Shown here: positions 3,573 through 47,789 of the stretch, piece by piece
Layout of the letters: every line of letters begins with the position of its first letter
How positions within the stretch are numbered: the stretch's first letter is position 1
Source: a virus
Taxonomy: Duplodnaviria; Heunggongvirae; Uroviricota; Caudoviricetes
Reading direction: 5' to 3' (one strand)
Length of the DNA stretch: 64,000 nt
Virus record (IMG/VR): IMGVR_UViG_2671180139_000002
Span: 39,803 to 103,802 of that record
Made by a program: the position numbers and the translations under genes
Notes under the pieces: generated by a model
The model's input: the letters and a program-made list of their open reading frames with translations, nothing else
The model's database searches: none
What the model was told of the DNA's origin: nothing

Positions 3573-4322
3573 CTATTCCGCGGCCTCGGGTAGCGCAGCA
3601 GGCTTTTTCGCGCGCATCAGAGCGGCCGGAGTGGGCGTCGCGAGCCAGGTTTCCAGTGTCAGCGTGTTGCCGTGGTAGACAACGGCGCTGGATCCGGTGA
3701 GTGCGAGCTGGATGTAGCAGCCGCACATCGCGTCAAAGTCCACGTCGATCGCGTGCCAATAAGCATCGCGACCGATATCCAGGCCCTGTTCGGTGAGAAC
3801 CCGATTGCTGGCAAGGATCATTCCGCCAACCCCGCACGCCGGCTCCTGCAGCAGGAGATGATCGCGGCCTTCTGCTCTCGCCTCTGCAAGGATCACAGGA
3901 ACATTGGACAGGCTCAGTCGGGCGATCAGCTCGGACACGCTGTCTGGGGTGAAGAACTGACCGATCTGCGTGTTCGCCTCGACCTCCATGAAGATCGGGC
4001 CCAGGAAATCATACGGTGCTTCGGCGAGCGCCCTGCCCGCAATCCCTAGCAGTCTCGCGAAATCGCCCATTGTCGCTTTAGCGATCTGACAACGCGCCAC
4101 GATCTTCATGTACTCGGCTTCGTTGTGGCGCCAGGCGTCGCCGTCGGGCTTCAGCACCGAACCGCGGAGGCTGTAGAAAGCCGCGTGAAGCCAGGTCCGG
4201 AAAGCTTCACGTTCGCGCCAGCCTTCGCGATTGGTGACGTCCGCGAGCAGACCAAGGAATGTCTTGGTCGCTTCTTTGTGGCGCGGATCCGCGACCACGC
4301 GCCGAGCAGTCGGCTGCGCCAT
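3573..4322 (-). CDS. N6-adenine-methyltransferase-like protein (HsdM-type motifs X and I; motif IV absent)
   Basis: GQFFTPDSV matches motif X and EPACGVGGMIL matches motif I (FxGxG); a helical region follows, but the protein ends before any NPPY/NPPF catalytic motif. Confidence 0.4.
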   Translation of the reverse strand: MAQPTARRVVADPRHKEATKTFLGLLADVTNREGWREREAFRTWLHAAFYSLRGSVLKPDGDAWRHNEAEYMKIVARCQIAKATMGDFARLLGIAGRALAEAPYDFLGPIFMEVEANTQIGQFFTPDSVSELIARLSLSNVPVILAEARAEGRDHLLLQEPACGVGGMILASNRVLTEQGLDIGRDAYWHAIDVDFDAMCGCYIQLALTGSSAVVYHGNTLTLETWLATPTPAALMRAKKPAALPEAAE

Positions 4323-7098: not shown

Positions 7099-7307
7099 TT
7101 GTTAGCCTTTGCTTCACAGGCCCGTCGGGCACTGGAGAGAGTAGGGTGCAGCCCGGTGTAGATGATGATCCCGTTCCGGATGACACTCGCGAGGTACGGA
7201 TCGATGGTGCGATCGACGTGATTGACTGCCAGTGTCACGTTGTCTGATCCGCGCTCCATAGCTTGACCTTTGTTCAAGGTTGGAGACTTCCAACTCACTT
7301 CCATCAT
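7095..7307 (-). CDS. hypothetical protein
   Basis: 70-aa ORF between the exonuclease and HNH genes; weak. Confidence 0.2.
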   Translation of the reverse strand: MMEVSWKSPTLNKGQAMERGSDNVTLAVNHVDRTIDPYLASVIRNGIIIYTGLHPTLSSARRACEAKANK

Positions 7308-7852
7308 ACGTGACGCCAGGTCCTTTCTTCACGAATGTCGCTGATGGTTCCGCGACTGACCCCGTGTTTCATAGCGAGATCGGTCACGGTTGCGTCCGAT
7401 TGGCGGATGGCGATGACGTCATCCGGGGTGAGCTTGGAGTTGCCGTTTGCAGTACCGCGGGTGGCTTTCAAACCGTGGGCGAAGGCGTGCTTCTCCTGGT
7501 CGCTGCGGCTCGCCCATTCCAGGTTACCGACGGAGTTGTCGGTCTTGTCGCCGCTCTTGTGGTTGACCTCGGGCAGGTTGTCCGGGTTCGGGATCAGGGC
7601 CAGACCGATCACCCGGTTCACCAGGACCGACTTGCTGATGCCGTCGAACGTCATGGTGAAGTACAGACGCTCCGTCTTGCGGTGGAGCGACGGCTTCACC
7701 CGGCGATAGACCCACTTCTTGCCTTCCATGAGGACGGTGCGGATCGCGCTCTTCGGTGCCGGCGCTCTGTACCAAACGGAGCCGTCTTCTCGGGCAACGT
7801 AGACCCGGTAGCGAAGCGCCCGGAGGATCCAGGCGTCCTTAGACCAAGTCAT
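7304..7852 (-). CDS. HNH homing endonuclease
   Basis: NHKSGDKTDNSVGNLEWASRSDQEKHAFAHG matches the HNH_3 pattern (NH.dGdKtNN...NLEw.t..eN..H); C-terminal HTH-like tail. Confidence 0.65.
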   Translation of the reverse strand: MTWSKDAWILRALRYRVYVAREDGSVWYRAPAPKSAIRTVLMEGKKWVYRRVKPSLHRKTERLYFTMTFDGISKSVLVNRVIGLALIPNPDNLPEVNHKSGDKTDNSVGNLEWASRSDQEKHAFAHGLKATRGTANGNSKLTPDDVIAIRQSDATVTDLAMKHGVSRGTISDIREERTWRHV

Positions 7853-8415
7853 GCGGCTCTCCCGAATTCACCGAAGGCGCGCTTCGCCGCGTGCTCGTAG
7901 GCGTCGCGCGCCTCAGCCGCTGTCGCGAAGCTGCCAAGAAATTTAGCTGTTCCCTTGATGGTGATTTGGGCGAGCCAACGACCGTTTCGTTCGCGAACTC
8001 CTTTAATGCCGCTGGTGTTGTTCGACGGCGCGTTCTTGTTTGCGGCGCTCTCGCCCCCGTCAGCGAGACGGAGATTCTCAAATCGGTTGTTCCTGGGGTT
8101 TGTGTCGATGTGATCGACAATTCGGTCGGGCCAAGTGCCGGTGACTAGAGCCCAGATGACGCGTTGTCCGAGAAGAGGAGCGCCGTCGACTGTCAGCTTG
8201 AGATATCCATCAGGGCGGAAGCCGCCAGCAAGCGCACCAGCCAAGCAGCCACGACCAGGCCGCGTGACGCGCCAGCGCAGTTCTCCCGTGCTGGGCTCAT
8301 AGCTGAGAACTTCGCGTAGGCGTTCAATCGTAGGCAGCGGACGAACCCTTTTAGGCCCAATCTGAGTGATGCCCTCCAGCAACTCAGATCTCCCGAGTTT
8401 TGGCGGAACCGACAC
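7849..8415 (-). CDS. HNH-AP2 homing endonuclease
   Basis: VDHIDTNPRNNRFENLRLA is the HNH_3 core; GIKGVRERNGRWLAQITIKGTAKFLGSFATAEEAARAYEHAA is AP2-like. Confidence 0.7.
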   Translation of the reverse strand: MSVPPKLGRSELLEGITQIGPKRVRPLPTIERLREVLSYEPSTGELRWRVTRPGRGCLAGALAGGFRPDGYLKLTVDGAPLLGQRVIWALVTGTWPDRIVDHIDTNPRNNRFENLRLADGGESAANKNAPSNNTSGIKGVRERNGRWLAQITIKGTAKFLGSFATAAEARDAYEHAAKRAFGEFGRAA

Positions 8416-9632: not shown

Positions 9633-9651
9633 GGTCAATATTGACTTATCA
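9633..9651. promoter_or_regulatory. conserved palindromic motif instance (GGTCAATATTGACTTATCA)
   Basis: Member of the GATAAGTCA-N4-TGACTTATC family; overlaps the rIIB stop codon. Confidence 0.5.
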
Positions 9652-10986
9652 AACGGAACGCGAAGATGCCTTCAGGTTCTTCGAGAGGGACTCCCGATCC
9701 ATTTTTAGCGCTTTCGCGATAGTGCGAATGGACTCGCCAGCTTCGTGGCGACGCTTGGCCTCGGCGAACTTCTCCTCGTAGGTAGCGAAGGTCTGCGGGG
9801 CGGCGGGAGCTTCGATGTCGGGCTTACCCTTCGCTTCAACGAAGTCCTGGGCGAGCGCCTTCGGAGCCGACTTCCCGGAATGCACACGCGGGGCCTGCTT
9901 GACCGGCGGTGCCTTCTGCCGCTCGTTCTTGGCAGCCTCGGTGATCGCCGCGCTCATGTCGCCGGACACCGCGGCCGCGACCGCCGCCTTGACGTCCTTG
10001 GGTTCGATGCGGGCAGCAGTCTCGACGAAGCCCCGGCGGAAGTTCGACTTCTTGGGCTTCGAGGCTGTCGCCTTAACGGGCGTAGTCTGGACTTCGATGC
10101 CTTTCTGGGTCGTGCTGCCGCCGACGACAACTTCCTCCAGGACGCCGATGTGATTGCCGGCGAGCACCGCCGCTACGATGGCGCGACCTTCTTCGTCCTC
10201 GATCGCGGAGATCTTACCCGCCACCTTCTGGTAGACGCCCTTCGGCAGCTCGGCCACGAGGTGATAGGCGCAGGCCCGCATCTTGCCGGTCTCGATCGAA
10301 GGAACCGCGATCACGTCTGCCGGGCGAACCTTCGCCAGGAACACGGCTGTGCCGTAGCTGCCGTAGTTCTTGTTGCAAACGTGCAGTCCCGTCGAGCACA
10401 GGGTCCGGCGATTGTCGTCGACCTTCTCGGTGGGCATCGACACGCGAGAGCCGAGACGCTGCTCGACCTTGCCGGTATGCGTGTCCACGAAGACGCCGGG
10501 CTTGTCGCGGTGGGGCGTCAGGAACTTGTAGACGACGATGGAGCCGTCATCGGCGATCGGCAGATCACCGTTGCGCATGAACTGCAGGAGCTCGTCCGCG
10601 CTGTGTTTGTGCGGGATGCGGGCGAAGTCGTCCATGAAGGCGGCGAGAGCCTCGGCGCCGAACCCGTGCGCGGCTTCTTCCACGTACTTCGTCAGCGGAG
10701 CTGCGTCCGGGATGACGGCCGCCGAGGTCTTCAGGGCAACCGTGCCGTTGGGCTGCGCTTCCATCGTAATGGCGCCCTGGGTCATCTCCGCCAGCTTCTG
10801 AGCCAGGGAGAATTCATCAAGGTCGATCTCCGCGCGATGGCGCGTGGCGAGTGGGATTGCGATGCGTTCCATGATTGACTGGGTGCGCCAGTTCTCCTGG
10901 GGCAACACCTCCGACGTTCCGTCTTCCAGGAACAGCGTGATGCCGTTCCGGCTGACGATGACGCCAACTGCTGTGACCATCTTCAT
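9649..10986 (-). CDS. rIIB: rIIB lysis-inhibition protein
   Basis: C-terminal LCSTGLHVCNKNY...AKVRPADVIAVPSIETGKMRACAYHLV aligns with T4 rIIB (TCSRGLHVCSKSY...VKVHPRDVVSIPIDYNDAKMRTCQYEVV); immediately downstream of rIIA as in T4. Confidence 0.8.
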   Translation of the reverse strand: MKMVTAVGVIVSRNGITLFLEDGTSEVLPQENWRTQSIMERIAIPLATRHRAEIDLDEFSLAQKLAEMTQGAITMEAQPNGTVALKTSAAVIPDAAPLTKYVEEAAHGFGAEALAAFMDDFARIPHKHSADELLQFMRNGDLPIADDGSIVVYKFLTPHRDKPGVFVDTHTGKVEQRLGSRVSMPTEKVDDNRRTLCSTGLHVCNKNYGSYGTAVFLAKVRPADVIAVPSIETGKMRACAYHLVAELPKGVYQKVAGKISAIEDEEGRAIVAAVLAGNHIGVLEEVVVGGSTTQKGIEVQTTPVKATASKPKKSNFRRGFVETAARIEPKDVKAAVAAAVSGDMSAAITEAAKNERQKAPPVKQAPRVHSGKSAPKALAQDFVEAKGKPDIEAPAAPQTFATYEEKFAEAKRRHEAGESIRTIAKALKMDRESLSKNLKASSRSV

Positions 10987-13343
10987 TCTGCGTTCGTCTC
11001 CGTCTTGGGCTGGTTTGTGGTCGCTTTGGCCGCTTTCTCGACCAGGGGAAGGATGATCTCGAGGCTCTCGGTCGTGGTCTCGAAGGATGGGGTTTTGAGC
11101 ACTGCCGCCAGCGGTCTGAGGTGAGCCAGACGCACCGTCAGCTTCGCTCGCTCTTTAAGATCGCGAATTCGCGGTTCCGCTTTTTCAAGAACAGCGTCCA
11201 CGAGCTTCTTGAACCGTTCCTGACGCTCGCACTCCTCGTTGTAGTTTCCGGCCATCGAGTAGGAGCCGCCGGGCTTTACCCGGAACAACAAGCTGGCGCA
11301 GAGGATCAAATCCCAGCACGCATCTGCACCTTTGCTGGCGCGATAAGGCTCGGCGAAGGCCGCGTACGCCGCGCGCCGAGAATGCAACATGAGTTCGGAT
11401 GCGAGCACGCTCTCCGGGTCTCGATGCATTATGGCTTCGTGACACTGCGCCGCCATCAGCATGAAGACGTCCTCGGGACGCGGCTTCTTCAGCCGTTTCT
11501 CCAGGCGCTCAAGGATGATGTCCTCGATAGCTCTCGCGCCTGAATCCAGGAGCTTCTTCTGCTCCCGGATCCCGGTAATCAGTGCCGTCGCCGGAACCAG
11601 CTTGTTCAACAGGCGAATGCAGAACTGTGGCTGGCTTGTCGCACCGAACGAGACGGCAGGCACATCGTGGTGCGAGTATTTGGACATTGCCAGGAATGCC
11701 GCTGGCTCGGCGAGCGTCTTTGGCCGGTCCACATAGGCTCGTTTCTCATACGCACTGACCGCCAGGTCCGCGAGCGCGAGGTACTTGGGCTTGTTATCGA
11801 TCACCGTCGCTGGATCAGGCTTCGGCTTCTTCTCCCGCTTGATGCGATCGAGGAGCTCGGTGGTCATACCGTGCTTGGCCGCCCGCTCCCGGATATCCTT
11901 CAGTTCGGCTTCGCCGAGCTTGGGATCGATCAGAAAGTAGCCAACTCCGCCCCTCTTGAGCGCCGTTTCGCGGTTTGGCGCGATAACCAAATGCAGTTGC
12001 GTCATCGCCTGTTGATCAGACGGGGACTGGTGGCCGTAGCTGTCGTCCGACTTGCGAATTGGAAGCAGCCGCCCGGTCTTCTTCTCCCGGTAGAAGAGCC
12101 GCCCCATGTGGTTCGCGCCCGTCACTCGCAGCGTCCGGCGGCGGACCTGTTCGATGGCCTCGTCACGGAAGGTGCCAGGATAGGGCCATTTCTTGTAGCG
12201 GCGCGCGAACTCACGGCGATGATCGGGAAATCGGCTAACCGCGTAGCGCCCAAAATCCGCTGACTTGATCGTTCTCGTCTTAGCTATGGCGATGGCGATC
12301 TCGTCGGCGCCGGCGTGGACCCGCCGATCGATTTTCTCACCGGTAAAGTCGAAGTCCGCCAGAGTCAGTCGAGTGACGTTCTTGAGCCGCGCTTCGATGA
12401 CCCTGTTCGTCTCGCGCTTCCCGATCGCCTGAACCTCATGCACGAGCTTCCGCAGAACTCTCTTGAGAGTAGCGATTGTGAGATCGTCCATCTGCAGGTC
12501 TTCGCGAGAGGGCGTGACCGAGATCGTGTCCGGTTCAGCGCAGACCACCAGACCCATCCAATCGATGCAGAGCGCCTCCGCTTGACGCTGGAGCGTCCTG
12601 AGCTCCGTCGAGTCACGAAGCGGATACAGGACGTTCCCATAAAGGACGTGAATGCCCTGAAGGTTGGGAACCAGGCCGTAGCCTTGCTTCCGCAATTCCG
12701 CGTAATCGTAGTGATTAAGCAGCTCGCCGTTCAGCTCCACCTTGATGCCACTGTTCCTTGCGTCGGCTTTAATGATGCGCTCGAACTCCAAGCGGTGATC
12801 CAGCAGCCGCTCGACTGTCAGCGGGATCGTGACCGTCAGACCACTCTCGTCCGTCGGCGTGGACACCATCGGCCGCACCGCGGGCAAGCCGCCCGTGCTT
12901 TCGTCGCCGATGTGCATGGCGTAGATGGTCTTGACGCCTTCATGGCAGCTCGCGACCGTGAAGTGATCGGTATAGGCAAAGGGTGACTTCGACCCGAGGC
13001 CGAAGCCGCCGGTTTGGGTAGAGTCAGCGGTCTTGGTGGAGCCGAAATAGGTGGCGTAGATCTCCTCGATCCGGTCGTCAGCGATGCCGGGGCCGAAATC
13101 CTGGATCGTAAGCGCGGTTTCCGTCAGCGTGACCTTCACCGGCAGGTCCGGTTGACCCACCATGATGTGCGCATCGATCGCGTTCCGGACGACCTCGCGC
13201 ACGACGGCGAGCTTCTTGTCGCGGTAGAGCGCGTCGGACAGGATCTTGAAGGCATGTGCGGAAGCAGCGATTTGAAAGTTGCGGGCTGCACCGCCTCCGA
13301 CAATCGCGTAGTTGTTGTTCTCCGCAAGCGCATTTACTTGCAT
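10983..13343 (-). CDS. rIIA: rIIA lysis-inhibition protein (GHKL/HATPase-like N-terminus)
   Basis: N-terminal VREVVRNAIDAH...IQDFGPGI...GGFGLGSKS are histidine-kinase-like ATPase motifs typical of rIIA; 786 aa; rIIB adjacent. Confidence 0.8.
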   Translation of the reverse strand: MQVNALAENNNYAIVGGGAARNFQIAASAHAFKILSDALYRDKKLAVVREVVRNAIDAHIMVGQPDLPVKVTLTETALTIQDFGPGIADDRIEEIYATYFGSTKTADSTQTGGFGLGSKSPFAYTDHFTVASCHEGVKTIYAMHIGDESTGGLPAVRPMVSTPTDESGLTVTIPLTVERLLDHRLEFERIIKADARNSGIKVELNGELLNHYDYAELRKQGYGLVPNLQGIHVLYGNVLYPLRDSTELRTLQRQAEALCIDWMGLVVCAEPDTISVTPSREDLQMDDLTIATLKRVLRKLVHEVQAIGKRETNRVIEARLKNVTRLTLADFDFTGEKIDRRVHAGADEIAIAIAKTRTIKSADFGRYAVSRFPDHRREFARRYKKWPYPGTFRDEAIEQVRRRTLRVTGANHMGRLFYREKKTGRLLPIRKSDDSYGHQSPSDQQAMTQLHLVIAPNRETALKRGGVGYFLIDPKLGEAELKDIRERAAKHGMTTELLDRIKREKKPKPDPATVIDNKPKYLALADLAVSAYEKRAYVDRPKTLAEPAAFLAMSKYSHHDVPAVSFGATSQPQFCIRLLNKLVPATALITGIREQKKLLDSGARAIEDIILERLEKRLKKPRPEDVFMLMAAQCHEAIMHRDPESVLASELMLHSRRAAYAAFAEPYRASKGADACWDLILCASLLFRVKPGGSYSMAGNYNEECERQERFKKLVDAVLEKAEPRIRDLKERAKLTVRLAHLRPLAAVLKTPSFETTTESLEIILPLVEKAAKATTNQPKTETNAE

Positions 13344-31510: not shown

Positions 31511-32359
31511 TTACTTCCCGATGCTGATCATCGGGGTGGAGCCTCCGGGAACCATCGTGGAGGGGAGCTTGCCGTCCCAGCGTTCCGCCTGGGTCAGAGC
31601 TACGAGGTTGGGGTTGTCGCGCAGGGCATCGCCGCGAGCCTTGATGGCGGCCGCTTCGGCTTCGCCGCGCTTCTGCGTGGCATAGGCGTCAGCGTCGGCC
31701 GCGGCGCGCACCGAGTCTGCCTTGGCCTGGGCCTGCGTGACGGTGATCTGGGCCTGGACCTTCTCGCGCTGGGCGTTCTGCTGGAGCTTCTCGACTTCGA
31801 TCTGCGCCTGCATCCGCTGCTCGATCGAGGCGACGTACTGCGGGCTGAACGTGATCTCCTCGATCTGCACGCCCTCGACCACGACCGGGCCGTCGACCGA
31901 CTTCGCGATCGCGTCGAACACCTGCTGGTTCAGCTTGGCCCGGTCCTGGATGGCCTGCTGCGCGGTGAAGCGGCCGAACACGTTCTTGAACTGCTGCTGG
32001 ATGCGCGGCTGAATGAGACGGCTCTCGACGTTCTCAGCGTTGCGGAACTCCGCGTAGATCGCCTGCACCTTGCCGGGATCCAGGTGGTAGTTCACCGACA
32101 CGCGGATGTTCGCCGGCTGCTGATCGGAACTGTAGGCTTCCATCTGATCGATGGTCACGACCTGCATCTGCACCGGAAGCCGGGCGATGCTCTCGATGAT
32201 CGGCACGTTGAAATGAAGGCCGGGCTGCGCTTCACCGACGATGGCACCGTTGCGCAGGATCACGCCGCGTTCGCCGGCGTCGATTGAGCTGGCGCTGGAG
32301 AAGGCCAAAATACCGACGAAGAGAGCGGCGCCGGCGAGCAGAATTGCCTTGGGTTTCAT
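31511..32359 (-). CDS. SPFH/band-7 (prohibitin/HflC-like) membrane protein
   Basis: N-terminal TM anchor followed by an SPFH core (VVTIDQMEAYSSDQ..., coiled-coil tail). Confidence 0.75.
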   Translation of the reverse strand: MKPKAILLAGAALFVGILAFSSASSIDAGERGVILRNGAIVGEAQPGLHFNVPIIESIARLPVQMQVVTIDQMEAYSSDQQPANIRVSVNYHLDPGKVQAIYAEFRNAENVESRLIQPRIQQQFKNVFGRFTAQQAIQDRAKLNQQVFDAIAKSVDGPVVVEGVQIEEITFSPQYVASIEQRMQAQIEVEKLQQNAQREKVQAQITVTQAQAKADSVRAAADADAYATQKRGEAEAAAIKARGDALRDNPNLVALTQAERWDGKLPSTMVPGGSTPMISIGK

Positions 32360-37950: not shown

Positions 37951-39143
37951 CAGCCGAAGATCCGCTGCGCGAACTGCTCCACGACTTCCTTGTCGGTGCG
38001 CGAGAGACGGTTCGTGTAGCCAAGCCGGAGACCGCCGCGCCAGTCAGAGCCGCGCACGAGACCCAGGCGGGCCGCCGCGATCAGCTCGCGGGGCGAGACG
38101 GTGGAGCCGATACGGTTTGCGCGGAAGGCGTCGCGGATCTCCTTCGCGAAGTCCACGATCTTCTCGGCGTCGCGCTTGTCGATGCCGGTCTTGCCGACGA
38201 TCACCGCGACCTCGACCTTCTTCTCCATGTAGAGGACTTCCTCCACGATCGCAAAGCGGCTGTAGTTTGCGGCGTTCTGGATCTGGACGCCCTGATAGAG
38301 GCCCGTCTCGTCGCCGCCGCCGTTGGTATTGCCGGTCGCGACAAAGCGGAAGTCGGGATGCGGGCGGATAACGCGGAACTCCGGCGGAGCTTCCTTGATG
38401 ACCAGCGGCTTGCCCTCAAGCACCGGCTGGTAGACGGACAGCACGGAGGGCATGGCGAAGTCGTACTCGTCAGCGGCGTAGACGTGCCCGTTGAGCATCG
38501 CGAGCGTCAGCGGGCCGGGCTGGAACTCGGTCGCGCCATTCTTCACGACGTACTGGCCGACGATGTGCGCCTCTTCCGTATTGACGGTGTGTTGGACACG
38601 CATGAAAGGCCGCCCGGTGCGGGCGCAGACCTGCTCGAACACAGTGGTCTTGCCGCTGCCGTGCATTCCCCAGAGATACGTCGGGAGATTGAGCTCCAGG
38701 CCGATGATCACCGTCTTCGTGAGGTCGATGTTGAACACGTAGGACTTGTCGATATCCGGCACGATCGCCGCGGCCTCCGGATCGAGACCGCTGAAAATTG
38801 AGATCGGGATCGGCTCGCCGCGGGCGTTCAGAGCAGCGGCTGCCTTGCCGAGCTCGAAAATTTCGTGAAGAGGCTTTTTCGCGATAGAGCGATCTCGCGA
38901 AGCCGCAGCACCGGTCTCCAGCTTCTGCGAGACGGGGATCTTTTCGCCTTCGCGTTCCTTGGTGCGCTTCTCGATCTGCGCCTTCGCCATGTCGGAGAGG
39001 AGCGGCGCGTGCGGAAACTCCTGCTTGTATCGCTCCAGCGTCCATTCCGGATGCTGCGCCTTGATGTGAAGCTGCACGGAATGGACCCGGGCGCCGTCGA
39101 TCTGGCAGGTGATCTTGCCGTCGTCGATCGTTTCCGTCGTCAT
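37950..39143 (-). CDS. CobS-like AAA+ ATPase (MoxR/CbbQ class)
   Basis: Walker A GMHGSGKTT and an AAA_5-like core; N-terminal region typical of phage CobS; paired with the downstream CobT-like gene. Confidence 0.7.
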   Translation of the reverse strand: MTTETIDDGKITCQIDGARVHSVQLHIKAQHPEWTLERYKQEFPHAPLLSDMAKAQIEKRTKEREGEKIPVSQKLETGAAASRDRSIAKKPLHEIFELGKAAAALNARGEPIPISIFSGLDPEAAAIVPDIDKSYVFNIDLTKTVIIGLELNLPTYLWGMHGSGKTTVFEQVCARTGRPFMRVQHTVNTEEAHIVGQYVVKNGATEFQPGPLTLAMLNGHVYAADEYDFAMPSVLSVYQPVLEGKPLVIKEAPPEFRVIRPHPDFRFVATGNTNGGGDETGLYQGVQIQNAANYSRFAIVEEVLYMEKKVEVAVIVGKTGIDKRDAEKIVDFAKEIRDAFRANRIGSTVSPRELIAAARLGLVRGSDWRGGLRLGYTNRLSRTDKEVVEQFAQRIFG

Positions 39144-41994: not shown

Positions 41995-42399
41995 TCAGGT
42001 CGTGGGCGAGCCGAAGACCGTTTCGAGCTTCTGCTCTAGGTCCGGCGTGAGCGACGGGTCCTGGTTATCCGTCAGCTCGCGGATCTTGGCGAGAACCTTG
42101 GACTCGTTCTTGGAGCAGATGGTGCCGAAGACGGTCCCGATCACATCGATGGACCAGCCATGCTGTTCCATTGCGAGACGGAAGAGAAAGGCGGGGTCGA
42201 CGTTCAGAGACTTCGCCAGCAGCGGAATCTTGTCCATCGGAACTCGAGCTTCGCCGCGCTTGATCATGGAGATCATGTTCGGCTTGTCATAGCCGACTTC
42301 GTCGGCGATCTGACGCTGGGTCTTCATACCCTGGATCGCGTCGATCTGCTTGCTCAGGTAGCTTGCAAGCCTAGTATGCTCGAACGGCCGTGCCGGCAT
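41995..42399 (-). CDS. XRE-family (Cro/CI-like) HTH transcriptional regulator
   Basis: MKTQRQIADEVGYDKPNMISMIKRGEARVP is a typical HTH_XRE; it diverges from the plus-strand membrane-protein island. Confidence 0.7.
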   Translation of the reverse strand: MPARPFEHTRLASYLSKQIDAIQGMKTQRQIADEVGYDKPNMISMIKRGEARVPMDKIPLLAKSLNVDPAFLFRLAMEQHGWSIDVIGTVFGTICSKNESKVLAKIRELTDNQDPSLTPDLEQKLETVFGSPTT

Positions 42400-42595
42400 T
42401 TAACTTCTCCAAATCGTCGTTTCCACTGTTTCTAGCCCTCTGTGATGTTGTCGTCCGTTTTTGATTTATTGTTGATCGACTACATAGCAGGACAGGTAGT
42501 GGCAAGTCAGTCAGTAGATGTGTTTTCTTGTGGGGCCGTTAATCGTCCTTGTTGATTTCGGTTCCCGGATTTCGTCAATTAGACGAGACGAAGGC

Positions 42596-42618
42596 GATAA
42601 GTCAAAACATATTGATCA
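42596..42618. promoter_or_regulatory. motif variant (GATAAGTCAAAACATATTGATCA) in the divergent intergenic region
   Basis: Lies in the 42400..42876 non-coding region. Confidence 0.35.
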
Positions 42619-42686
42619 TCCGGCGTAACGAAACGGTGAGTTCGGGTGCTCGGCTGATCAATAGGTCAGGACGCGCCGTTCGGTTC

Positions 42687-42702
42687 CATAATGCATATTA
42701 TG
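42687..42702. promoter_or_regulatory. perfect palindrome CATAATGCATATTATG (candidate operator)
   Basis: 6-4-6 inverted repeat in the divergent region between the XRE regulator and the DUF805 gene. Confidence 0.45.
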
Positions 42703-42876
42703 CGAATGGAGCTGGAGCACCCCCAAGGCGCTGGGAGGCCCGTCAGCGGCAAGATTCAGAAAGCTTGGGCAGATTAGTCACAAGCGGCGGAATGTTCAAC
42801 CACGAGCTCCTGAGAGGCTTGTAGCTCCGTTGCGTCTAAGTAGTGTCTCCAGCGACAAACAAGACGGCGGGTAAGA

Positions 42877-43467
42877 ATGAACTGGTATTTGAAGGCGATG
42901 CGCCGCTACTTCGAGTGGCGTGGTCGATCGGCGCGGGCCGAGTTTTGGTACTTCACGCTCTTTTATCTGATAATCTCCTTCCTCAGCGGTGTGGTCGATT
43001 ACCTCCTTGGCTACACCGATGTCGATCAGCTTACCCCGGTAAACACCCTGGTGATCCTGGTCCACATCATCCCGACGATCACCGTCTCCATCCGCCGCTT
43101 TCATGATAGAGATCAGAGCGGCTGGCGGACACTCGGTCTCATCGTTCCGATCGCCAATCTGGTGCTGCTCGCTGACCTCGCCCGAAGGGGAACAGACGGG
43201 CCCAATCGATTTGGCGACGATCCGCTCGACCCCATTGCCGATCCTCACGTCCATTCTCGTCTTCTTCAAGCTGGCGCCCCTAGAAGCGTACCTGTTGTCA
43301 ACCCGAGAAGACCCACATTCACTTCTCACAACGCCGCCGTACCCAGCTCCAGCAACAGCTTGATTGAAGAGATCGAGCGTTTGGATCAGCTTCGGCGAAA
43401 CGGCGTCATCTCCGAGCAGGAGTTCGATCGTCTGAAAGCCAACACCATGAAGCGAGCTGACGCATAA
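42877..43467 (+). CDS. DUF805-family inner-membrane protein with C-terminal SHOCT domain
   Basis: MNWYLKAMRRYFEWRGRSARAEFWYF...IRRFHDRDQSGW is the DUF805 signature; C-terminal LIEEIERLDQLRRNGVISEQEFDRLKAN is SHOCT-like. Confidence 0.7.
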   Translation: MNWYLKAMRRYFEWRGRSARAEFWYFTLFYLIISFLSGVVDYLLGYTDVDQLTPVNTLVILVHIIPTITVSIRRFHDRDQSGWRTLGLIVPIANLVLLADLARRGTDGPNRFGDDPLDPIADPHVHSRLLQAGAPRSVPVVNPRRPTFTSHNAAVPSSSNSLIEEIERLDQLRRNGVISEQEFDRLKANTMKRADA

Positions 43468-43898
43468 TGAACCCCGACGTTTCTACGGGCCTTCTGCTCA
43501 TCGTCATCCTGATTGCGCTCTATCTGTTGCCCGCGATCATCGCCTTCTCACGAGGGCACCATAACCGGGTCGCCATCCTCGTTCTCAACTTGCTGCTGGG
43601 ATGGTCAGTTCTCGGTTGGATCGCCGCGCTGGTTTGGTCGTTCACGGCGGTCGAGCGTGCGCCAGGCGTCATTTATACCGATCAGCGAGCCCGTGAGCCA
43701 CGAACCGTTCGTATTGAGCCCGTTTCGCCCGTTCGGCAGATCGAACCTGTGGTGTCGGCCGAACCGCCGGCGAGCTTAGACGGGGCCGATATCGAAGAGC
43801 ATTTGCGCCATCTTGAGGCGTTAAGAGGTCGCGGCGTGATCACCGAGGAAGAACTGCGCGAACTCAGGCTGAAGGCGATCAGCCACTCCGTCCGATAG
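43467..43898 (+). CDS. superinfection immunity (Imm-family) membrane protein with C-terminal SHOCT domain
   Basis: LYLLPAIIAFSRGHHNRVAILVLNLLLGWSVLGWIAALVWSF matches the Imm_superinfect signature; C-terminal LRHLEALRGRGVITEEELRELRLKA is SHOCT-like. Confidence 0.65.
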   Translation: MNPDVSTGLLLIVILIALYLLPAIIAFSRGHHNRVAILVLNLLLGWSVLGWIAALVWSFTAVERAPGVIYTDQRAREPRTVRIEPVSPVRQIEPVVSAEPPASLDGADIEEHLRHLEALRGRGVITEEELRELRLKAISHSVR

Positions 43899-43993
43899 GC
43901 GATCTCGACACCACCGGAAGTAGCATGGTGGGACGCACCCGGACCATGCTCCTCTCAACTCGTTCTTCGTTCTCGAAGAGCGGGAGAGAGATA

Positions 43994-44434
43994 ATGAGAA
44001 GCATCATTCAGGTGGCAGAGGTGTTGTCGGTGATCAGCTTCGTCGCGTTCTGTTTGATGGGCGCGGTGACCCTCTGGATCCAACAAAAGGCAGCAGCGGC
44101 CGCCGGCGCAGCCACAACCAGTGCGGCTGGTGCCGCCGCGAGCGCCGCGGCACAGCCTACAGCCGATCAGCACGGCTTCGCAGCCGATGCGTTGCAGACT
44201 GCAGTCGACCTGGTGAAAGCAATTCCTGCAGCAATGGAGGCCGTCGTAAAGGCAGGACCCGCCATGGCGGCACTTCTTGCTTCCATACTCTTTCTGGCGA
44301 TCGCGGCCACGGTCGCGATCGAGCGCCAGCCGAAACTCTCATGCTCGATCCCCGCGCAGACGGGCCTGACCCTTGACCAAAACAAGTTGAAAGATGCGGT
44401 GACGGTGATCTGCGTGGGCGTCAAGAAGAGCTAG
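43994..44434 (+). CDS. membrane protein (Ala-rich, 2-3 TM)
   Basis: Hydrophobic helices at both ends and a poly-Ala central segment; third gene of the plus-strand island. Confidence 0.4.
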   Translation: MRSIIQVAEVLSVISFVAFCLMGAVTLWIQQKAAAAAGAATTSAAGAAASAAAQPTADQHGFAADALQTAVDLVKAIPAAMEAVVKAGPAMAALLASILFLAIAATVAIERQPKLSCSIPAQTGLTLDQNKLKDAVTVICVGVKKS

Positions 44435-44534
44435 CTTCTCCGCCATCGACGATTTCACCGGCCCGCCGGCGTCAATCCCCTACCCTGCTCCTGTCCTGTG
44501 AATAACGGGACTCGCCACCTCATCCCGAATCGCG

Positions 44535-44548
44535 CATCACTTGTGATG
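44535..44548. promoter_or_regulatory. perfect inverted repeat CATCACttGTGATG upstream of the RHH gene
   Basis: ~25 nt upstream of the 44573 start; operator-like. Confidence 0.4.
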
Positions 44549-44572
44549 CTTCCGTGGTGAACGAGGCGTTTT

Positions 44573-44791
44573 ATGGATCGAGCAGTGGATCAGAGCAGCC
44601 ACCGGCGCCGCATGGCGCAGCACAGAGAGCAGCGCAAGGCCGAAGGGTTTCGCGAGGCTAATGTGTGGTTGCGCCAGGATACGCTCGCCGAAATCGACGA
44701 GCTGGTCGCGTCTGGACAGTTCCGCAATCGATCCGAAGCCATCGCTGCCGCCGCGCAAGCCTTCTTCAAGGAGAAGACTTTGAACACGTAA
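44573..44791 (+). CDS. ribbon-helix-helix (CopG/ParD-like) DNA-binding protein
   Basis: WLRQDTLAEIDELVASGQFRNRSEAIAAAAQAFF has the RHH beta-alpha-alpha pattern. Confidence 0.55.
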   Translation: MDRAVDQSSHRRRMAQHREQRKAEGFREANVWLRQDTLAEIDELVASGQFRNRSEAIAAAAQAFFKEKTLNT

Positions 44792-44929
44792 CCGCAAAAG
44801 CAAAAGGGCCTACGAGGTTGGCGCCTCGTAAGCCCTTGATGTTGATCACCGCCTGGTAAGGCAGACAACCGCGCTTCAGCAACGCGAATCTGCCCCTCCA
44901 GTCCGAAGAAGTCAAGTGACACCTTCGCG

Positions 44930-46102
44930 GTGAACGGCATCGCTTTGCCTGAAAACGGGGAATTGATGCAGACCGTCCCATCGGGCGGCCGACGGCTCAC
45001 GCCTGCCGTTTTGGCCGGGAGAGAACTCGCGTTCGAGAAAGAGCGCACCGTCTCTCGTAAGGAATTGGCGCAAACCGCTCGTGAAGCTGAGAAAGCTCTC
45101 TCGCTGCGGCCCGGGCTGCGTCTGGTCCTCCATGAGCTTGTTGGCTCTTGGGGCGAACAGGACTTCGAGGGCAAGCTTCTGGTCTGGCCGTCGAATGATT
45201 ACCTGGTCGCGCGCACCGGCTTGTCGGAACGCACCGTGCGGTATGCGGTCAGCCAGCTTGTGGAGCTGCAGCTCGTCTCCTCGAAGGACTCCGCGAATGG
45301 GAAGCGCTTCGCTATTCGCGATCGCGCCGGCGAGATCGTGGACGCCTTCGGCTTCGACCTGACGCCTCTCTATGCGCGCCGGGGAGAGTTCACTGCCGAG
45401 ATCGAGCGCCAGAAGCTCGCGCGTGACGCCCAGGGGCGCTTGTTCGACCAGATTACGATCTGTCGCCGGGCGACGGAGGAAGCGCTCAGCGCGCTCGCGG
45501 AGCATTTCCCGGGTGTCGTCACTGCTGATCTGATCGAAGCGCTGGATGAGCTTCGCGAGCGTACTCCGCGACGTGGTTCCATGCGGCCAATCGAACGGCT
45601 TGTCGGTGAGTGGTTAGAGATCCGAAGGCTTGCCGAGAAGCGCTATTATGAGTCCGCCAATGGCGGCAATTCTTGCCGCCACAAAGAAACAAACAACGAC
45701 TCCCCTAGTGAGTCTTGTACAAAGGTCGATGAGGGAGTTGGTTCAGCGGAACGGCCCGTTTCCCTCACACTCGGCCTCGTATTGGATGCCTGCCCTGCCC
45801 TTTCGATGTATCCGCGGCCGATCCGCAGCGAAAATGACCTGATCGACGCTGGAAAGCATCTTCGATCCATGCTGAGCGCACATCCGAGCGCCTGGCGAGA
45901 GGCCGTTGAGGCGATCGGACCCGTGCGAGCTGCCGGCGCCGTTGCTCTCGTGCTCCAGCTCTATGAAGACGATCAGGCCGCGGGCACGAACCGGATCCGA
46001 AATCCTGGCGGCTACTTCCGAGCCATGGTGCGCATGGTCGCCGAGGGCCGGGTCGACCTGCAGACGGAGATCATCGCGCTTCGGAAACGTCGGCTCTGCT
46101 GA
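44930..46102 (+). CDS. repC: RepC-like plasmid replication initiator (repABC family)
   Basis: LLVWPSNDYLVARTGLSERTVRYAVSQLVELQLVSSKDSANGKRFAIRDRAGEIVDAFGFDLTPLYARRGEF...ICRR aligns closely with RepC proteins; an internal AT-rich stretch lies at ~45640-45730. The true start may be the second Met at 44966. Confidence 0.7.
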   Translation: MNGIALPENGELMQTVPSGGRRLTPAVLAGRELAFEKERTVSRKELAQTAREAEKALSLRPGLRLVLHELVGSWGEQDFEGKLLVWPSNDYLVARTGLSERTVRYAVSQLVELQLVSSKDSANGKRFAIRDRAGEIVDAFGFDLTPLYARRGEFTAEIERQKLARDAQGRLFDQITICRRATEEALSALAEHFPGVVTADLIEALDELRERTPRRGSMRPIERLVGEWLEIRRLAEKRYYESANGGNSCRHKETNNDSPSESCTKVDEGVGSAERPVSLTLGLVLDACPALSMYPRPIRSENDLIDAGKHLRSMLSAHPSAWREAVEAIGPVRAAGAVALVLQLYEDDQAAGTNRIRNPGGYFRAMVRMVAEGRVDLQTEIIALRKRRLC

Positions 46103-47509
46103 TCAGAAGAGCTTAAAGTGGGTCACCGGCTTGAAGATATCTCCTACGGCCTTCTCAACCTTGTAGATATCGTTTCCGGGACCTGGACCGTGTTGAAGAT
46201 CGTGAAGACCATTGTTGAGAGCCTCTACGGTTTTCCCTCGAAGCCCGAAAGGATCCTCTATCGTCTTCAGAGCCTGATAAGCTACGCTATTCTCCCCGAG
46301 AGCGTGTTTAATCATGTCATCCCGTTGGTGCAGTAGTTTGACAAAGTCATTATTTGGACCAAAGCACCCGTCGTCTGTGCCAATACCATGTTCGAGACAC
46401 TTTCCAAGCTCGCGCTCAAGAAGCTTACCGCCTGTGCAGACGACATACGCATGGGGCTCCATCTTGGTGTCGATCGCGCAACCTAGAGCGATCTGTTGCT
46501 CCGGAGTAGCATTACGGGCAATCGCGCAGACCATAGCAGCCGAGAGACTATCTTTGTTTTGGGTGAGACATGCGAGGTAGTACCGCTGATCCTCGTTCAT
46601 AAATGGGTCAGCCACGCAAACTGCCCGGTCGGTGTTGCTATGCGCCTTGTCCACGCACTTTTTGAGATTGGTCACCTTGTCGTATATTTCGGTGAATCGC
46701 TTCCCACCGGTGGAACAAGCTAGAGCTCTGACGCGATCCTCGTCGTTATCCTCAAGGCACTTTTCCGTGGTTCGGTATGAGCGCGGAAGCGCGCGCTCGA
46801 CAACACAGGACTGAAACTCATCCTCGGTATTTGAACCTTCCTGACATTCCCGCAGACCATCCAAGCTGGGTATCGGAGGCGCTGCCAGCATCGTCTCGGA
46901 CTGAGCCGTCCCCGAGTTGGTGATCAGCCCCTCGCCATTCATGCCTTCGGTCGGCACAGAGACGGATAATCCCGCGGGAGTTATGCTGCCGAAGCCATTC
47001 GGGTTGATGAAAATCGGGCCAGGATCGGAAGGCGGAGGCGGTGCGCAGATTAGCGCTCCAGGAAGCCCACAAGGCAATGCTGACAGGCAGGTAGGAAAAG
47101 GTGGAGTCCCGCAAGCTGGTGCGACCGGGAATGGTGGAAACGGGAATCCGGGCGGTGGAGGGCACGCGATCGTGCCCGGTAAGCCACACGCGCGCGGCAT
47201 CGGGCAAGGAGACAGGCCCATTGCACCGCAGAACGGCTCACCTGATGAACCTACAATCGGCTGGACCACCGACCCAGTGGGAGAGCCGAAACAGGGACCG
47301 TTGTTGATGCAAGACTCGAAAGTCGGAGTATCGACAAAGAGCCCGCTACAAGCTTGCATCAACTGCGTGTTGACCGCTCCAACGTGCCAGCAGTCGATTA
47401 TCTTAGATCTCGGAGAGGCTTGTGAGTGGACAGCGTTCGTGACGCTGACGATAAGTATGACGCTTATGCAAAACCGCAGTAAAGCCGAACGTGAAAGTGT
47501 TGCGCCCAT
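46103..47509 (-). CDS. secreted Cys- and Pro-rich protein (signal peptide)
   Basis: N-terminal signal peptide (LLRFCISVILIVSVTNAVHSQA); about 40 Cys; repeated CGxPG...PPPP segments; the DNA is lower in GC than its surroundings. Confidence 0.55.
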   Translation of the reverse strand: MGATLSRSALLRFCISVILIVSVTNAVHSQASPRSKIIDCWHVGAVNTQLMQACSGLFVDTPTFESCINNGPCFGSPTGSVVQPIVGSSGEPFCGAMGLSPCPMPRACGLPGTIACPPPPGFPFPPFPVAPACGTPPFPTCLSALPCGLPGALICAPPPPSDPGPIFINPNGFGSITPAGLSVSVPTEGMNGEGLITNSGTAQSETMLAAPPIPSLDGLRECQEGSNTEDEFQSCVVERALPRSYRTTEKCLEDNDEDRVRALACSTGGKRFTEIYDKVTNLKKCVDKAHSNTDRAVCVADPFMNEDQRYYLACLTQNKDSLSAAMVCAIARNATPEQQIALGCAIDTKMEPHAYVVCTGGKLLERELGKCLEHGIGTDDGCFGPNNDFVKLLHQRDDMIKHALGENSVAYQALKTIEDPFGLRGKTVEALNNGLHDLQHGPGPGNDIYKVEKAVGDIFKPVTHFKLF

Positions 47510-47540
47510 GGAAGTATAGCCTCATGTTGAGACAAGGACG

Positions 47541-47789
47541 TCAATGATAGTTAGCTTTGCATACGTCGTAGCAGTTACTCCATTTCTGCCGGCATATTGT
47601 CTGCTCTTGAAAGCCGGTACACGCTCTGTACTCGATCTCGCACTGCTGACTACACACCTCGAAACCAGAGATAACCAAGATCAGAGGTTCTGACCGCTTG
47701 GGCTCCGGTTCGTTGAGTGATTCAGTCGCATAGGTGAGCGATGTGGAGCTTAGAGTGATTGTTATGAGAGCGACGACAACACGAAACAT
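47541..47789 (-). CDS. small secreted Cys-rich protein
   Basis: Signal peptide MFRVVVALITITLSSTSLTYA followed by 8 Cys in a ~50-aa mature peptide; lower-GC DNA. Confidence 0.45.
   Translation of the reverse strand: MFRVVVALITITLSSTSLTYATESLNEPEPKRSEPLILVISGFEVCSQQCEIEYRACTGFQEQTICRQKWSNCYDVCKANYH

Follow-up and report, generated by a model that had tools for sequence, protein, structure and literature searches.

A probable repC-family replicon cassette in a fixed slot of a phage-plasmid from Faunimonas pinastri

In the 64-kb stretch of viral DNA analysed here (hereafter the window), a gene for a plasmid-type replication initiator, RepC, lies among phage replication genes, which raises the question of what such a gene does in a virus. 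An earlier note, made from the letters of the window, took the genome for that of a lytic-looking T4-like phage and considered that the gene might serve a plasmid-like carrier state, interfere with host replicons or be a recent moron. ORF 44930-46102(+) is present in the window. The likelier start of repC is the ATG at 44966, because alignments with homologues begin at residue 13 and one NCBI annotation of an identical protein uses this codon:

44966..46102, plus strand: repC, replication initiator, 378 aa from the ATG at 44966 (390 aa from the alternative GTG at 44930)

The assignment to RepC, originally based on the central 150 residues, held over the full length of the protein. In a profile search, the NCBIfam equivalog NF040974 (RepABC_RepC) scored 226.3 bits against a cut-off of 150, with residues 13-384 matching profile positions 5-392 of 393. 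The N-terminal RP-C domain with its HTH (PF03428, residues 21-188, 1.9e-45) and RP-C_C (PF11800, residues 281-386, 1.1e-20) both exceeded their Pfam gathering scores, and PHROG 22671, a 'replication protein', matched at 9.9e-55. Under the older domain model PRK13824 the protein scored 194, below the cut-off of 390, and no sequence relative of RepC was found in the PDB. The protein is 53% identical to the RepC of a true repA-repB-repC operon in Microvirga terrae; it is only about 40-50% identical to the published members of its phage group and nearer to the RepCs of Bosea and Microvirga plasmids. The repC of pRlX6, a related plasmid, appears in its annotation as two ORFs; RepC is dispensable in this plasmid unless the record contains an error.

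The window is part of a circular element of about 109.4 kb from the cultured bacterium Faunimonas pinastri (Hyphomicrobiales; Afifellaceae), in agreement with the Rhizobiales host that had been proposed. Its RepC is 100% identical to SER29121.1 / WP_238858388.1 of F. pinastri, encoded on a 109,453-bp contig. An independent Logan assembly of 109,388 bp breaks inside the gene for PolIII-alpha, its ends overlapping by 30 nt, and the window sequence reads across this join. The two isolate assemblies are circular permutations of each other and have no chromosomal flanks; no integrase was seen among the genes of the element that were scanned. By this assembly evidence, the element is extrachromosomal and non-integrated in its bacterial host. 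Circularly permuted or terminally redundant phage DNA that replicates in the culture might also yield a circular assembly graph; the genome of the related phage B1VFA has fixed direct terminal repeats (PMC12509600). Tail-fibre genes lie within the window, and the contig that encodes RepC also has a terminase gene, a ParA gene and two ParB_N genes. As in a phage-plasmid, one replicon combines the packaging and structural genes of a phage with the replication and partition genes of a plasmid.

The window is collinear with a 117-kb Methylobacterium plasmid bearing HK97-type capsid, tape-measure and lambda-like tail genes. Its polymerase is of the DnaE/PolIII-alpha type (PHROG 405), 59-64% identical to the dnaE of related plasmids, and the virions of relatives are siphophages by electron microscopy (PMC12509600). 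The description as a lytic-looking T4-like phage did not survive these comparisons. A T4-type family-B polymerase and a contractile-tail myovirus module, the marks of such a phage, were not found, and what looks T4-like is confined to rIIA/rIIB, a UvsX/RecA-like protein, a gp32-like SSB and gp46/47-like SbcCD. In a lytic T4-like phage, a plasmid initiator would stand out; here it is an ordinary part of a recognised lineage, members of which have already been termed plasmid-like prophages or phage-plasmids with a RepC replicon (PMC4447125, PMC12509600, PMC7969092). Among them, pLM21S1 is a plasmid-like prophage with a RepC replicon and is related to RHEph10 (PMC4447125, PMC5537653), which has itself been described as homologous to this known phage-plasmid (PMC7969092); B1VFA and V1VFA-S carry parA, parB and repC (PMC12509600). 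RHEph10 and B1VFA are isolated phages. The RHEph10-type phages were obtained as plaque formers, stable lysogeny was not demonstrated for them, and mitomycin C failed to induce pLM21S1 (PMC4447125).

The same slot holds the RepC cassette in 10 Rhizobium phages and on a 114-kb metagenomic contig, and likewise in circular plasmids of 115-119 kb from Methylobacterium (two), Shinella, Sinorhizobium, Rhizobium beringeri and Pararhizobium. At least six relatives are complete circular plasmids of cultured strains and, with the circular contig of F. pinastri and the literature on the lineage, they support the plasmid-like carrier state that had been one of the options. An alignment-based scan of IMG/VR returned RepC relatives on 51 contigs, where a single protein query had given no match, and many contigs of 106-119 kb carry the element's ParA. 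Nucleotide searches of the island around repC against phage and plasmid collections gave no match either, and protein-level searches were needed; no tRNA genes were found within the window. On gene content and order, the element is a siphovirus-like phage-plasmid of the RHEph10/pLM21S1 type. With that group (RHEph10, pLM21S1, B1VFA-V1VFA-S and RHph_X66; about 115-122 kb) it shares a collinear gene order, a similar size, a PolIII-alpha at the identity given above, the same XRE / RHH-RepC / ligase slot and ParA and ParB genes that adjoin the terminase. It differs in its RepC allele, in five extra accessory genes that flank the cassette and in its host, Afifellaceae being a new host family for the group, which the 51 contigs show to be large.

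The plus-strand island that had been reported is present and spans 42877-46102. Its surroundings are:

41995..42399, minus strand: XRE-family HTH regulator (Pfam HTH_3), divergent from the island, in the same place in all relatives
42877..44434, plus strand: three accessory genes co-oriented with RHH-repC, by Pfam DUF805+SHOCT, superinfection-immunity (Imm_superinfect)+SHOCT and membrane protein
46103..47789, minus strand: two accessory genes for secreted Cys/Pro-rich proteins (468 aa and 82 aa), convergent with repC, of lower GC and element-specific

Neither the M. oryzae phage-plasmid nor the 114-kb relative has counterparts of the three plus-strand accessory genes, which are likewise element-specific. 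For the RHH-RepC pair, the option of a recent moron is refuted, as the pair is far from absent in closely related phages: in every relative examined it sits between an XRE/CobT/CobS/sigma/PolIII block and a ligase/primase/DnaB block, and the small gene precedes repC at 40 of the 51 IMG/VR RepC loci. The reported lack of repA and repB partition genes is true of the window, within which no ParA or ParB homologue was found, but not of the element: some 48 kb from RepC, its contig has genes for a short ParA (214 aa) and two ParB_N proteins. The 16-bp palindrome of repABC-type parS, GGTNNGNGCNCNNACC, had a single match, inside cobS (38616-38631), against 2.85 expected by chance, and a repABC-type parS near the operon was rejected as no more frequent than chance.

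Directly upstream of repC are a small gene and its presumed control region:

44573..44791, plus strand: small probable ribbon-helix-helix (RHH) regulator, 72 aa, in the place of repA/repB in repABC operons
44512..44549, plus strand: putative promoter/operator region of the RHH-repC operon, with the palindrome GCATCACttGTGATGC (44534-44549) in a 23-nt conserved block (44526-44548)
44512-44517 (-35, TCGCCA) and 44535-44540 (-10, CATCAC), plus strand: tentative promoter with weak hexamers, placed by analogy with relatives

ORF 44573-44791(+) exists as described, and the RHH fold ascribed to its product is probable. The score with Pfam RHH_1 was borderline (20.0 bits against a cut-off of 20.5), and RHH Pfam models were matched at E<0.01 by only 3 of the 15 members of the small-protein family; a family profile searched against the PDB gave ParD and NikR as leading matches (E 0.007-0.05). 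In a single-sequence AlphaFold model (pLDDT 80) two helices are seen and the strand is modelled as helix. Homologues in X66, pRlX1 and pRlX6 are annotated RHH/CopG, and the small protein is encoded upstream of repC in all 15 compared elements but one, a true repABC operon. The perfect inverted repeat that had been placed at 44535..44548 is present and slightly longer. The 23-nt block containing it, CGAATCGCGCATCACTTGTGATG, is identical in the nearest relative, the 114-kb metagenomic contig, where the flanking spacer is unrelated. In other lineages this position, which follows a conserved GAATCG motif, is taken by a different inverted repeat; the repeat is conserved in position, 15-45 nt upstream of the start codon, and lineage-specific in sequence. 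This comparative evidence points to a palindromic operator at the cassette's own promoter. The idea of multiple genomic operator sites was dropped: the palindrome ATCACNNGTGAT is not enriched in the window, and its count is not unusual, 41 of 100 shuffles giving at least two matches at one mismatch.

The spacer between the RHH gene and repC contains a predicted antisense RNA gene and its presumed target:

44794..44880, minus strand: predicted antisense ctRNA of about 87 nt, with stem-loop 1 followed by an intrinsic terminator, complementary to the 5' part of the repC leader
44804-44837 (stem), U-run down to 44794, minus strand: predicted intrinsic terminator of the ctRNA
44887..44915, minus strand: predicted ctRNA promoter, -35 TTGACT (44915-44910), 17-nt spacer, -10 CAGATT (44892-44887)
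44792..44965, plus strand: structured repC leader, predicted target of the ctRNA, with the SD GGGGA at 44957-44961

The 5' end of the ctRNA is deduced from the promoter, and its length is likewise a guess. All 15 aligned elements had one TTGAC at the analogous position, followed after 16-18 nt by a -10-like hexamer; the TTGAC was invariant. The Rfam model ctRNA_p42d (RF00489) matched the window end to end at 21.6 bits (E 0.14), under its gathering score of 50. When 13 related loci were scanned with Rfam, none gave ctRNA_p42d at E<=10, and we therefore built a covariance model, R1, from 12 relatives, excluding the window. Weak Rfam matches to BjrC80, ar14 and FsrA at related loci were discarded, as they covered the terminator hairpin only. 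R1 gave one significant match in the 64 kb, at 44792-44840(-) (28.4 bits, E 3.5e-4), and a match to it was present at 42 of 51 independent viral RepC loci, in every case antisense and immediately before repC. In the hairpin 96% of cells are paired, with compensatory changes in 11 of 14 pairs, a level reached in none of 500 shuffles; the MAFFT alignment A1 of the promoter-to-terminator segment was out of register in the hairpin and was left out of this covariation analysis. The ctRNA folds at -41.1 kcal/mol (z -4.2) and the repC leader at -78.5 kcal/mol (z -5.25). Taken together, these data argue for an antisense ctRNA gene in the spacer before repC. The leader blocks GGTGAACG...GCTTTGCC are kept among relatives, and base-pairing is possible between the conserved GCTTTGCC (44942-44949) and the 5' end of the leader. 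A long-range leader helix of GGCAAAGC with GCUUUGCC forms in the MFE fold; it was considered as a regulatory switch and is left unexplained, since the octamers barely vary and covariation is uninformative for them.

A compositional dip marks a candidate origin within repC itself:

45611..45730, unstranded: GC minimum, candidate oriV unwinding region, repC nt 646-765

In this segment GC is 0.50, against 0.62 for the whole gene, and GC3 is 0.40-0.50, against 0.70; 10 of 12 homologues have their minimum at the equivalent relative position. The stretch reported earlier at about 45640-45730 therefore corresponds to a real but relative dip and is not truly AT-rich. In p42d, the essential A+T-rich region occupies repC nt 450-850, with a mutated core at 658-822 (PMC3155836), and the composition of the window's repC suggests an oriV at the matching location.

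From these observations, we consider it likely that the region at 44.5-46.1 kb is a complete 'repC-family' theta-replicon cassette in a fixed slot of a phage-plasmid that is circular and extrachromosomal in F. pinastri. Its most likely role is to maintain the plasmid-prophage state, in which it would be the element's plasmid replicon. In p42d, RepC is sufficient for replication and cis-acting, oriV is located inside repC and the ctRNA is a negative regulator (PMC3155836). By analogy, RepC in this element would be in limiting supply and able to drive autonomous replication; it would act, probably in cis, on an origin in its own coding sequence (45611-45730) and recruit the replisome. Two negative loops would limit copy number: the small RHH protein may repress the RHH-repC promoter through the palindrome at 44534-44549, and a constitutive ctRNA (from 44880 to 44794) may pair with the repC leader and lower repC expression. 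Segregation would fall to the separate ParA and two ParB_N proteins, and the co-oriented superinfection-immunity and DUF805 genes would be cargo, likely expressed in the prophage. The replicon would then comprise the full repC-family control circuit (operator, RHH protein, ctRNA and internal origin) and not a lone gene, and its parts may be of use for vectors and copy-number studies in poorly tractable Hyphomicrobiales. RepC in this lineage has been in the literature since 2015; the detail of ctRNA and operator appears to be new.

The closest known counterparts are the repC-family replicons (pRmeGR4a type; the repC2 module of pSmeLPU88b), which have repC and a ctRNA with no repA/repB operon. 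Their antisense ctRNA is a negative regulator and incompatibility determinant (PMC10194956). Its gene lies just upstream of repC, in the opposite orientation, between a TTGAC-type promoter and an intrinsic terminator, an arrangement that the ctRNA gene predicted here shares, and their RepC has about 380-400 aa with RP-C and RP-C_C domains, as here; the present cassette differs in lying on a phage genome and in the predicted length of its ctRNA, published ones having 55-59 nt. An upstream RHH gene with an operator was not found discussed in the repC-family literature examined. With repABC operons such as that of Rhizobium etli p42d, the cassette shares a homologous RepC, a homologous antisense hairpin in the pre-repC spacer and the intragenic low-GC region; unlike them, it has the 72-aa RHH-like protein in place of upstream repA/repB, no significant parS and distant partition genes. 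The logic of the proposed circuit, and nothing of its ancestry beyond the RHH fold, recalls pMV158, an unrelated rolling-circle replicon of Gram-positive bacteria. There, the RHH repressor CopG is co-transcribed just upstream of the initiator gene repB and binds a promoter palindrome, and the antisense RNAII targets the initiator's leader. As to lifestyle, P1 and N15 are tailed phages kept as low-copy extrachromosomal prophages by their own plasmid-type initiators and ParA/ParB partition. Their initiators are unrelated to RepC, being RepA/RepL in P1 and a primase-helicase, also called RepA, in N15; N15 is moreover a linear element with telomeres, and neither phage is known to have repC-type ctRNA controls; phage-plasmids of the P1/N15 type are also treated in PMC7969092.

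A different role for the same parts is that RepC and its internal origin mainly, or also, initiate vegetative (lytic) replication for the PolIII-alpha/DnaB/primase replisome, the plasmid state being secondary or incidental. The replication gene cluster does surround the cassette, with PolIII-alpha on one side and ligase/primase/DnaB on the other, no other initiator-like or origin-recognition protein was recognised among the annotated genes of the window, all plaque-forming isolates have kept RepC, and a precedent exists in the cis-acting phage-plasmid initiator RepA of N15 (cited in PMC3155836). Against this, the cassette is transcribed in the direction opposite to the replication genes and in that of the superinfection-immunity gene; copy-number limits by a ctRNA and an RHH protein suit low-copy maintenance and not runaway lytic replication; an identical cassette type drives or accompanies megaplasmids that have no phage genes; and the cassette allele follows the host's plasmids, not the phage backbone. 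We therefore regard a mainly lytic initiator as unlikely.

Much less probable still is that the module is an incompatibility device or accessory moron, in which RepC and/or the ctRNA would displace or silence resident repABC/repC replicons. Trans-acting incompatibility is known both for RepC, through its C-terminal 39 aa, and for the ctRNA (PMC3155836, PMC10194956). The RepCs of phage-plasmids closely resemble those of plasmids from the same host genus, and in M. oryzae H33R-06 the phage-plasmid and a co-resident 457-kb plasmid have RepCs that are 81% identical. This last pair, however, co-exists, with no mutual exclusion, and an anti-plasmid role would also leave aside that the module occupies one syntenic slot lineage-wide with a full replicon regulatory architecture, and that its carriers include stable circular plasmids, which need a replicon; any incompatibility would be a side-effect of being one. 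That the cassette is a decaying, non-functional leftover of past plasmid-phage recombination, as the split repC of one relative (pRlX6) might suggest, is scarcely credible, since the window's repC ORF is intact, full-length and above the equivalog cut-off, the RNA hairpin keeps its pairs via compensatory changes, the operator is footprinted by comparative conservation and the GC3 dip is conserved, all of which argues for purifying selection on the cassette.

The history of the cassette is also informative. RepC trees indicate that it has been exchanged with host megaplasmids, the phage RepCs being non-monophyletic, which makes this a clear-cut case of phage-plasmids and megaplasmids exchanging a module. 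We suggest tentatively that RHH-ctRNA-repC is an exchangeable 'replicon cartridge', fixed in its slot, whose allele is repeatedly swapped, in either direction, with megaplasmids of the current host; the cartridge would set the hosts in which the element persists and the resident replicons with which it is compatible, and RepC might further be the only origin-recognition protein of a virus with its own PolIII-type replisome. If swaps do run in either direction, plasmids could also acquire repC-family modules from the phage. The layout of small protein plus repC is found on non-phage megaplasmids of Bosea, Microvirga, Methylobacterium and R. beringeri as well.

The open reading frame at 44930-46102 encodes 390 residues that match Pfam RP-C (1.9e-45, residues 21-188) and RP-C_C (1.1e-20, residues 281-386), PHROG 22671 ('replication protein') and nearly the entire NCBIfam RepABC_RepC equivalog profile (226.3 bits; curated cut-off, 150 bits). 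On these profile matches its identity as a full-length RepC is solid. An earlier note had reported this frame and that of a small ribbon-helix-helix (RHH) protein preceding it, and both exist in the window; its assignment to the RepC family is confirmed, but the 'central 150 residues' to which it confined the match were too narrow. Since alignments with homologues begin at residue 13 of the 390-aa form, ATG 44966 is the start in one NCBI annotation of the identical protein, and GGGGA precedes that ATG, we consider 44966-46102 (378 aa) the likelier gene. The 'AT-rich stretch' also claimed inside repC is a local dip and relative only, with a GC of 0.50 (45611-45730) against 0.62 for the gene. 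This minimum, at nt 646-765 of repC, is seen at third codon positions as well and has an equivalent relative position in 10 of 12 homologues. Replication of the Rhizobium etli repABC plasmid p42d requires an A+T-rich region at nt 450-850, with a mutated core at 658-822, and the dip agrees in place with that essential region (PMC3155836). The features of the cassette are as follows.

44573-44791, plus strand: small RHH-like gene
44915-44910 (-35) and 44892-44887 (-10), minus strand: predicted promoter boxes of the putative antisense RNA (ctRNA)
44966-46102, plus strand: repC, likelier start
45611-45730, inside repC: candidate origin region (GC minimum, position match to p42d)

SER29121.1 / WP_238858388.1, a protein of Faunimonas pinastri (Hyphomicrobiales, Afifellaceae; apparently a new host family for the lineage described below), matches the window RepC at 100% identity and is encoded on a 109,453-bp contig. 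An independent Logan assembly (run SRR4236216) gives a 109,388-bp contig whose first position is window 33,948 and whose last base is window 33,919; its two ends share 30 nt within the PolIII-alpha gene, and across this join the window is continuous. Therefore, the element is circular or circularly permuted, about 109.36 kb long and without chromosomal flanks in cultured-isolate DNA. Genes for ParA (61% identical to ParA of a 117-kb Methylobacterium oryzae phage-plasmid), two ParB_N proteins, a DEAD-box helicase and a terminase are also present on the Faunimonas contig; they lie beyond the window, some 48 kb away from repC. Thus, the reported lack of partition genes holds within the window but is an artefact of its boundary. 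Two genes downstream of parA (L018, 11146-11481) lies a gene whose 111-aa product weakly matches Pfam CRISPR_Cas2.

Most of what the earlier note observed holds, but its context does not: given its DnaE/PolIII-alpha polymerase and phage-plasmid gene order, the element is not a T4-like phage; the impression arose because rII, UvsX-like, gp32-like and gp46/47-like genes are present. The large minus-strand genes of the window encode DnaE/PolIII-alpha, a sigma factor, CobS- and CobT-like proteins, DNA ligase, primase and DnaB, and further ones rIIA/rIIB, SbcCD-like nucleases, a RecA/UvsX-like protein and tail-fibre proteins. Using tblastn, we found full-length RepC homologues (39-42% identity) in the Rhizobium phages RHEph10, RHph_N1_10, N1_15, N2_6, Y2_11, Y2_17_1, X66, V1VFA-S and B1VFA. 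In each of the phages fetched, one strand carries PolIII-alpha, sigma, CobS, CobT, a small ORF and XRE in the same order, and the other a small protein and RepC, beyond which lie ligase, WGR, primase and DnaB. Cultured bacteria supply six further members of the lineage, all of them complete circular plasmids of 115-119 kb (two from Methylobacterium, one each from Shinella and Pararhizobium, Sinorhizobium pLM21S1 and R. beringeri pRlX6), with PolIII-alpha proteins 59-64% identical; the cassette slot is the same in all five whose repC region was fetched. Relative to the M. oryzae plasmid the window is inverted but collinear, from about 30.5 kb of the plasmid through the origin to about 88 kb, and that plasmid carries terminase, major capsid, tape-measure and lambda-like tail genes. 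The nearest RepC (61% identity) comes from a metagenomic contig of 114 kb whose synteny is the same. The carrier state, one of three interpretations in the earlier note, is correct and already published for this lineage: pLM21S1 was described as a 'plasmid-like prophage' that has a replication system of RepC-like type and is related to RHEph10 (PMC4447125, PMC5537653), RHEph10 is homologous to this known phage-plasmid (PMC7969092), and the siphophages B1VFA and V1VFA-S carry parA, parB and repC (PMC12509600).

Three observations concern other RepC elements. In pRlX6 (119 kb; L023, 1507-2653), repC is annotated as two overlapping ORFs, with several indels relative to X66 in the low-GC linker region; this is either a sequencing error or a plasmid persisting with a broken RepC. 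Four IMG/VR contigs of 29-125 kb classed as viral (L071-L074) carry complete repA-repB-repC operons (RepA 55-65% and RepB 41-46% identical to those of Microvirga terrae), and either form a separate kind of phage-plasmid that has a true repABC replicon or are plasmids wrongly classed as viruses. Distant RepC relatives (26-30% identity) occur on 'Bacteriophage sp.' contigs of 5.8-13.7 kb from human faeces (MT837988 and others), which may be small plasmids, not phages.

The 72-aa protein upstream of repC is a borderline RHH-like protein. It scores 20.0 bits with Pfam RHH_1 (cut-off, 20.5); a profile of its 15-member family ranks ParD and NikR top in the PDB (E 0.007-0.05), and only 3 of the 15 members match RHH Pfam models at E<0.01. 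An AlphaFold model of the single sequence (pLDDT 80) has the two helices of the fold but renders its strand as a helix. The small protein is kept upstream of repC in 40 of 51 IMG/VR loci, and the layout is found on non-phage megaplasmids too. The inverted repeat claimed upstream is present (GCATCACttGTGATGC, 44534-44549), and the 23-nt block containing it (44526-44548) is identical in the 114-kb relative, although the spacer around it shows no relationship. At the equivalent position, downstream of a conserved GAATCG motif, other lineages carry inverted repeats that differ from it: CTCGTA..TACGAG in Methylobacterium and Microvirga, GTCACGTGTG..CACACGTGAC in Bosea, and ATCAC..GTGAT in X66 and V1VFA-S. 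Such lineage-specific repeats at a fixed position are the pattern expected if an operator co-evolved with its repressor. A 21-nt direct repeat, GTGAnnCnTTCnGnGGTGAACG, stands in front of both the RHH and repC start codons (44543-44563 and 44916-44936).

The spacer from the RHH stop to the repC ATG is 174 nt long, and its minus strand holds a G+C-rich 14-bp hairpin followed by UUUUGCUUUUGC. The Rfam ctRNA_p42d model aligns end to end with this hairpin at a sub-threshold 21.6 bits (E 0.14; gathering score, 50). We compared 15 elements: phages, phage-plasmids, a true repA-repB-repC operon from Microvirga terrae, and the repC genes found in Bosea, M. ossetica and M. nodulans without adjacent repA/repB. 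On the minus strand, every one has one TTGAC(A/T/G) box and, 16-18 nt downstream of it, a hexamer resembling a -10 box; there is a single internal stem-loop, and a terminator adjoins the stop codon of the upstream gene. A covariance model trained on 12 relatives, with the window left out, gave a sole significant match in the 64 kb, at 44792-44840 on the minus strand (28.4 bits, E 3.5e-4; runner-up, 13.4 bits). It matched 42 of 51 independent IMG/VR RepC loci; each match is antisense and precedes repC by 115-260 nt, with none elsewhere in the 343 kb. In the hairpin alignment from these loci 96% of cells are paired and 11 of 14 pairs show compensatory changes; none of 500 shuffles reached the observed values, and the signal collapsed when partners were shifted. 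From its predicted promoter, the antisense RNA (ctRNA) would run from about 44880 to 44794 (~87 nt), folding into two hairpins (-41.1 kcal/mol, z -4.2); the sense repC leader is also strongly structured (z -5.25). The octamer GCTTTGCC (44942-44949) lies immediately 5' of the repC SD; its reverse complement, GGCAAAGC, is found at the leader start, that is, the ctRNA tail (region 44794-44808). The pair is kept in most relatives, and the two base-pair in the leader's MFE fold.

By homology with p42d and the 'repC family' of replicons without repA/repB (PMC3155836, PMC10194956), the cassette would be the replicon of the plasmid state. RepC would initiate replication at an origin within its own gene, the ctRNA would reduce repC expression, the RHH protein would repress its own transcription via the palindrome, and ParA and ParB, encoded elsewhere on the element, would carry out segregation. 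The RHH gene holds the position occupied by the RepA/RepB genes in repABC operons. Copy control in pMV158 involves CopG, RNAII and RepB, and the proposed circuit is similar to it in design. Recognition of the module as a complete repC-family circuit, with ctRNA and footprinted operator, is apparently new. RepC may fire in lytic growth as well, a possibility we keep because no other initiator was recognised among the annotated window genes.

In a neighbour-joining tree of 26 RepCs, those of phages and phage-plasmids are non-monophyletic. The M. oryzae 117-kb phage-plasmid is sister to the same strain's 457-kb plasmid (100% bootstrap), and X66 and V1VFA-S cluster with a 318-kb R. beringeri plasmid (88%). 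The window and the 114-kb contig fall together in a clade that includes a Bosea megaplasmid RepC, and Microvirga-type plasmids form the neighbouring clade. On this topology we infer that the slot is ancestral and the allele exchanged with host plasmids; this evidence for cassette exchange is apparently new. In M. oryzae H33R-06, the RepCs of the 117-kb (L005, 8001-9131) and co-resident 457-kb (L021, 2516-3646) replicons are 81% identical, with 37 of 39 residues identical in the C-terminal segment that sets p42d incompatibility; the RHH proteins are 36% identical and the ctRNA stem-loops have diverged. This pairing suggests that repC was exchanged recently and that compatibility depends on something other than the C-terminus of RepC.

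Genes on either side of the cassette, and others elsewhere in the window, are listed here.

42877-44434, plus strand: DUF805+SHOCT (84.5 bits), Imm_superinfect+SHOCT (72 bits) and Ala-rich membrane protein, co-oriented with RHH-repC
46103-47509, minus strand: 468-aa protein, signal-peptide-like N-terminus, Cys/Pro/Gly-rich
47541-47789, minus strand: 82-aa secreted Cys-rich protein
3573-4322, minus strand: N6-adenine methyltransferase-like gene
7304-8415, minus strand: two adjacent HNH endonucleases, one with an AP2 domain
9649-13343, minus strand: rIIA/rIIB homologues
31511-32359, minus strand: SPFH/Band_7 protein

The genes at 42877-44434 have no counterpart in the M. oryzae phage-plasmid or the 114-kb relative, and are probably prophage-expressed superinfection-exclusion cargo inserted beside the replicon. 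On the other side, the stop codon of the 468-aa gene directly abuts that of repC, GC is lower (~0.48-0.55 over 46103-47789), and neither the 468-aa nor the 82-aa gene has a family match or a counterpart in relatives. These flanking genes (42877-44434 and 46103-47789), absent from relatives, are the true 'morons' of the element. The stretch that separates the divergent XRE gene from the plus-strand island (42400-42876) has the region's lowest GC (0.445-0.55) and a 16-nt inverted repeat (42607-42622 / 42651-42666, 88% complementary), and is a candidate lysis-lysogeny switch region.
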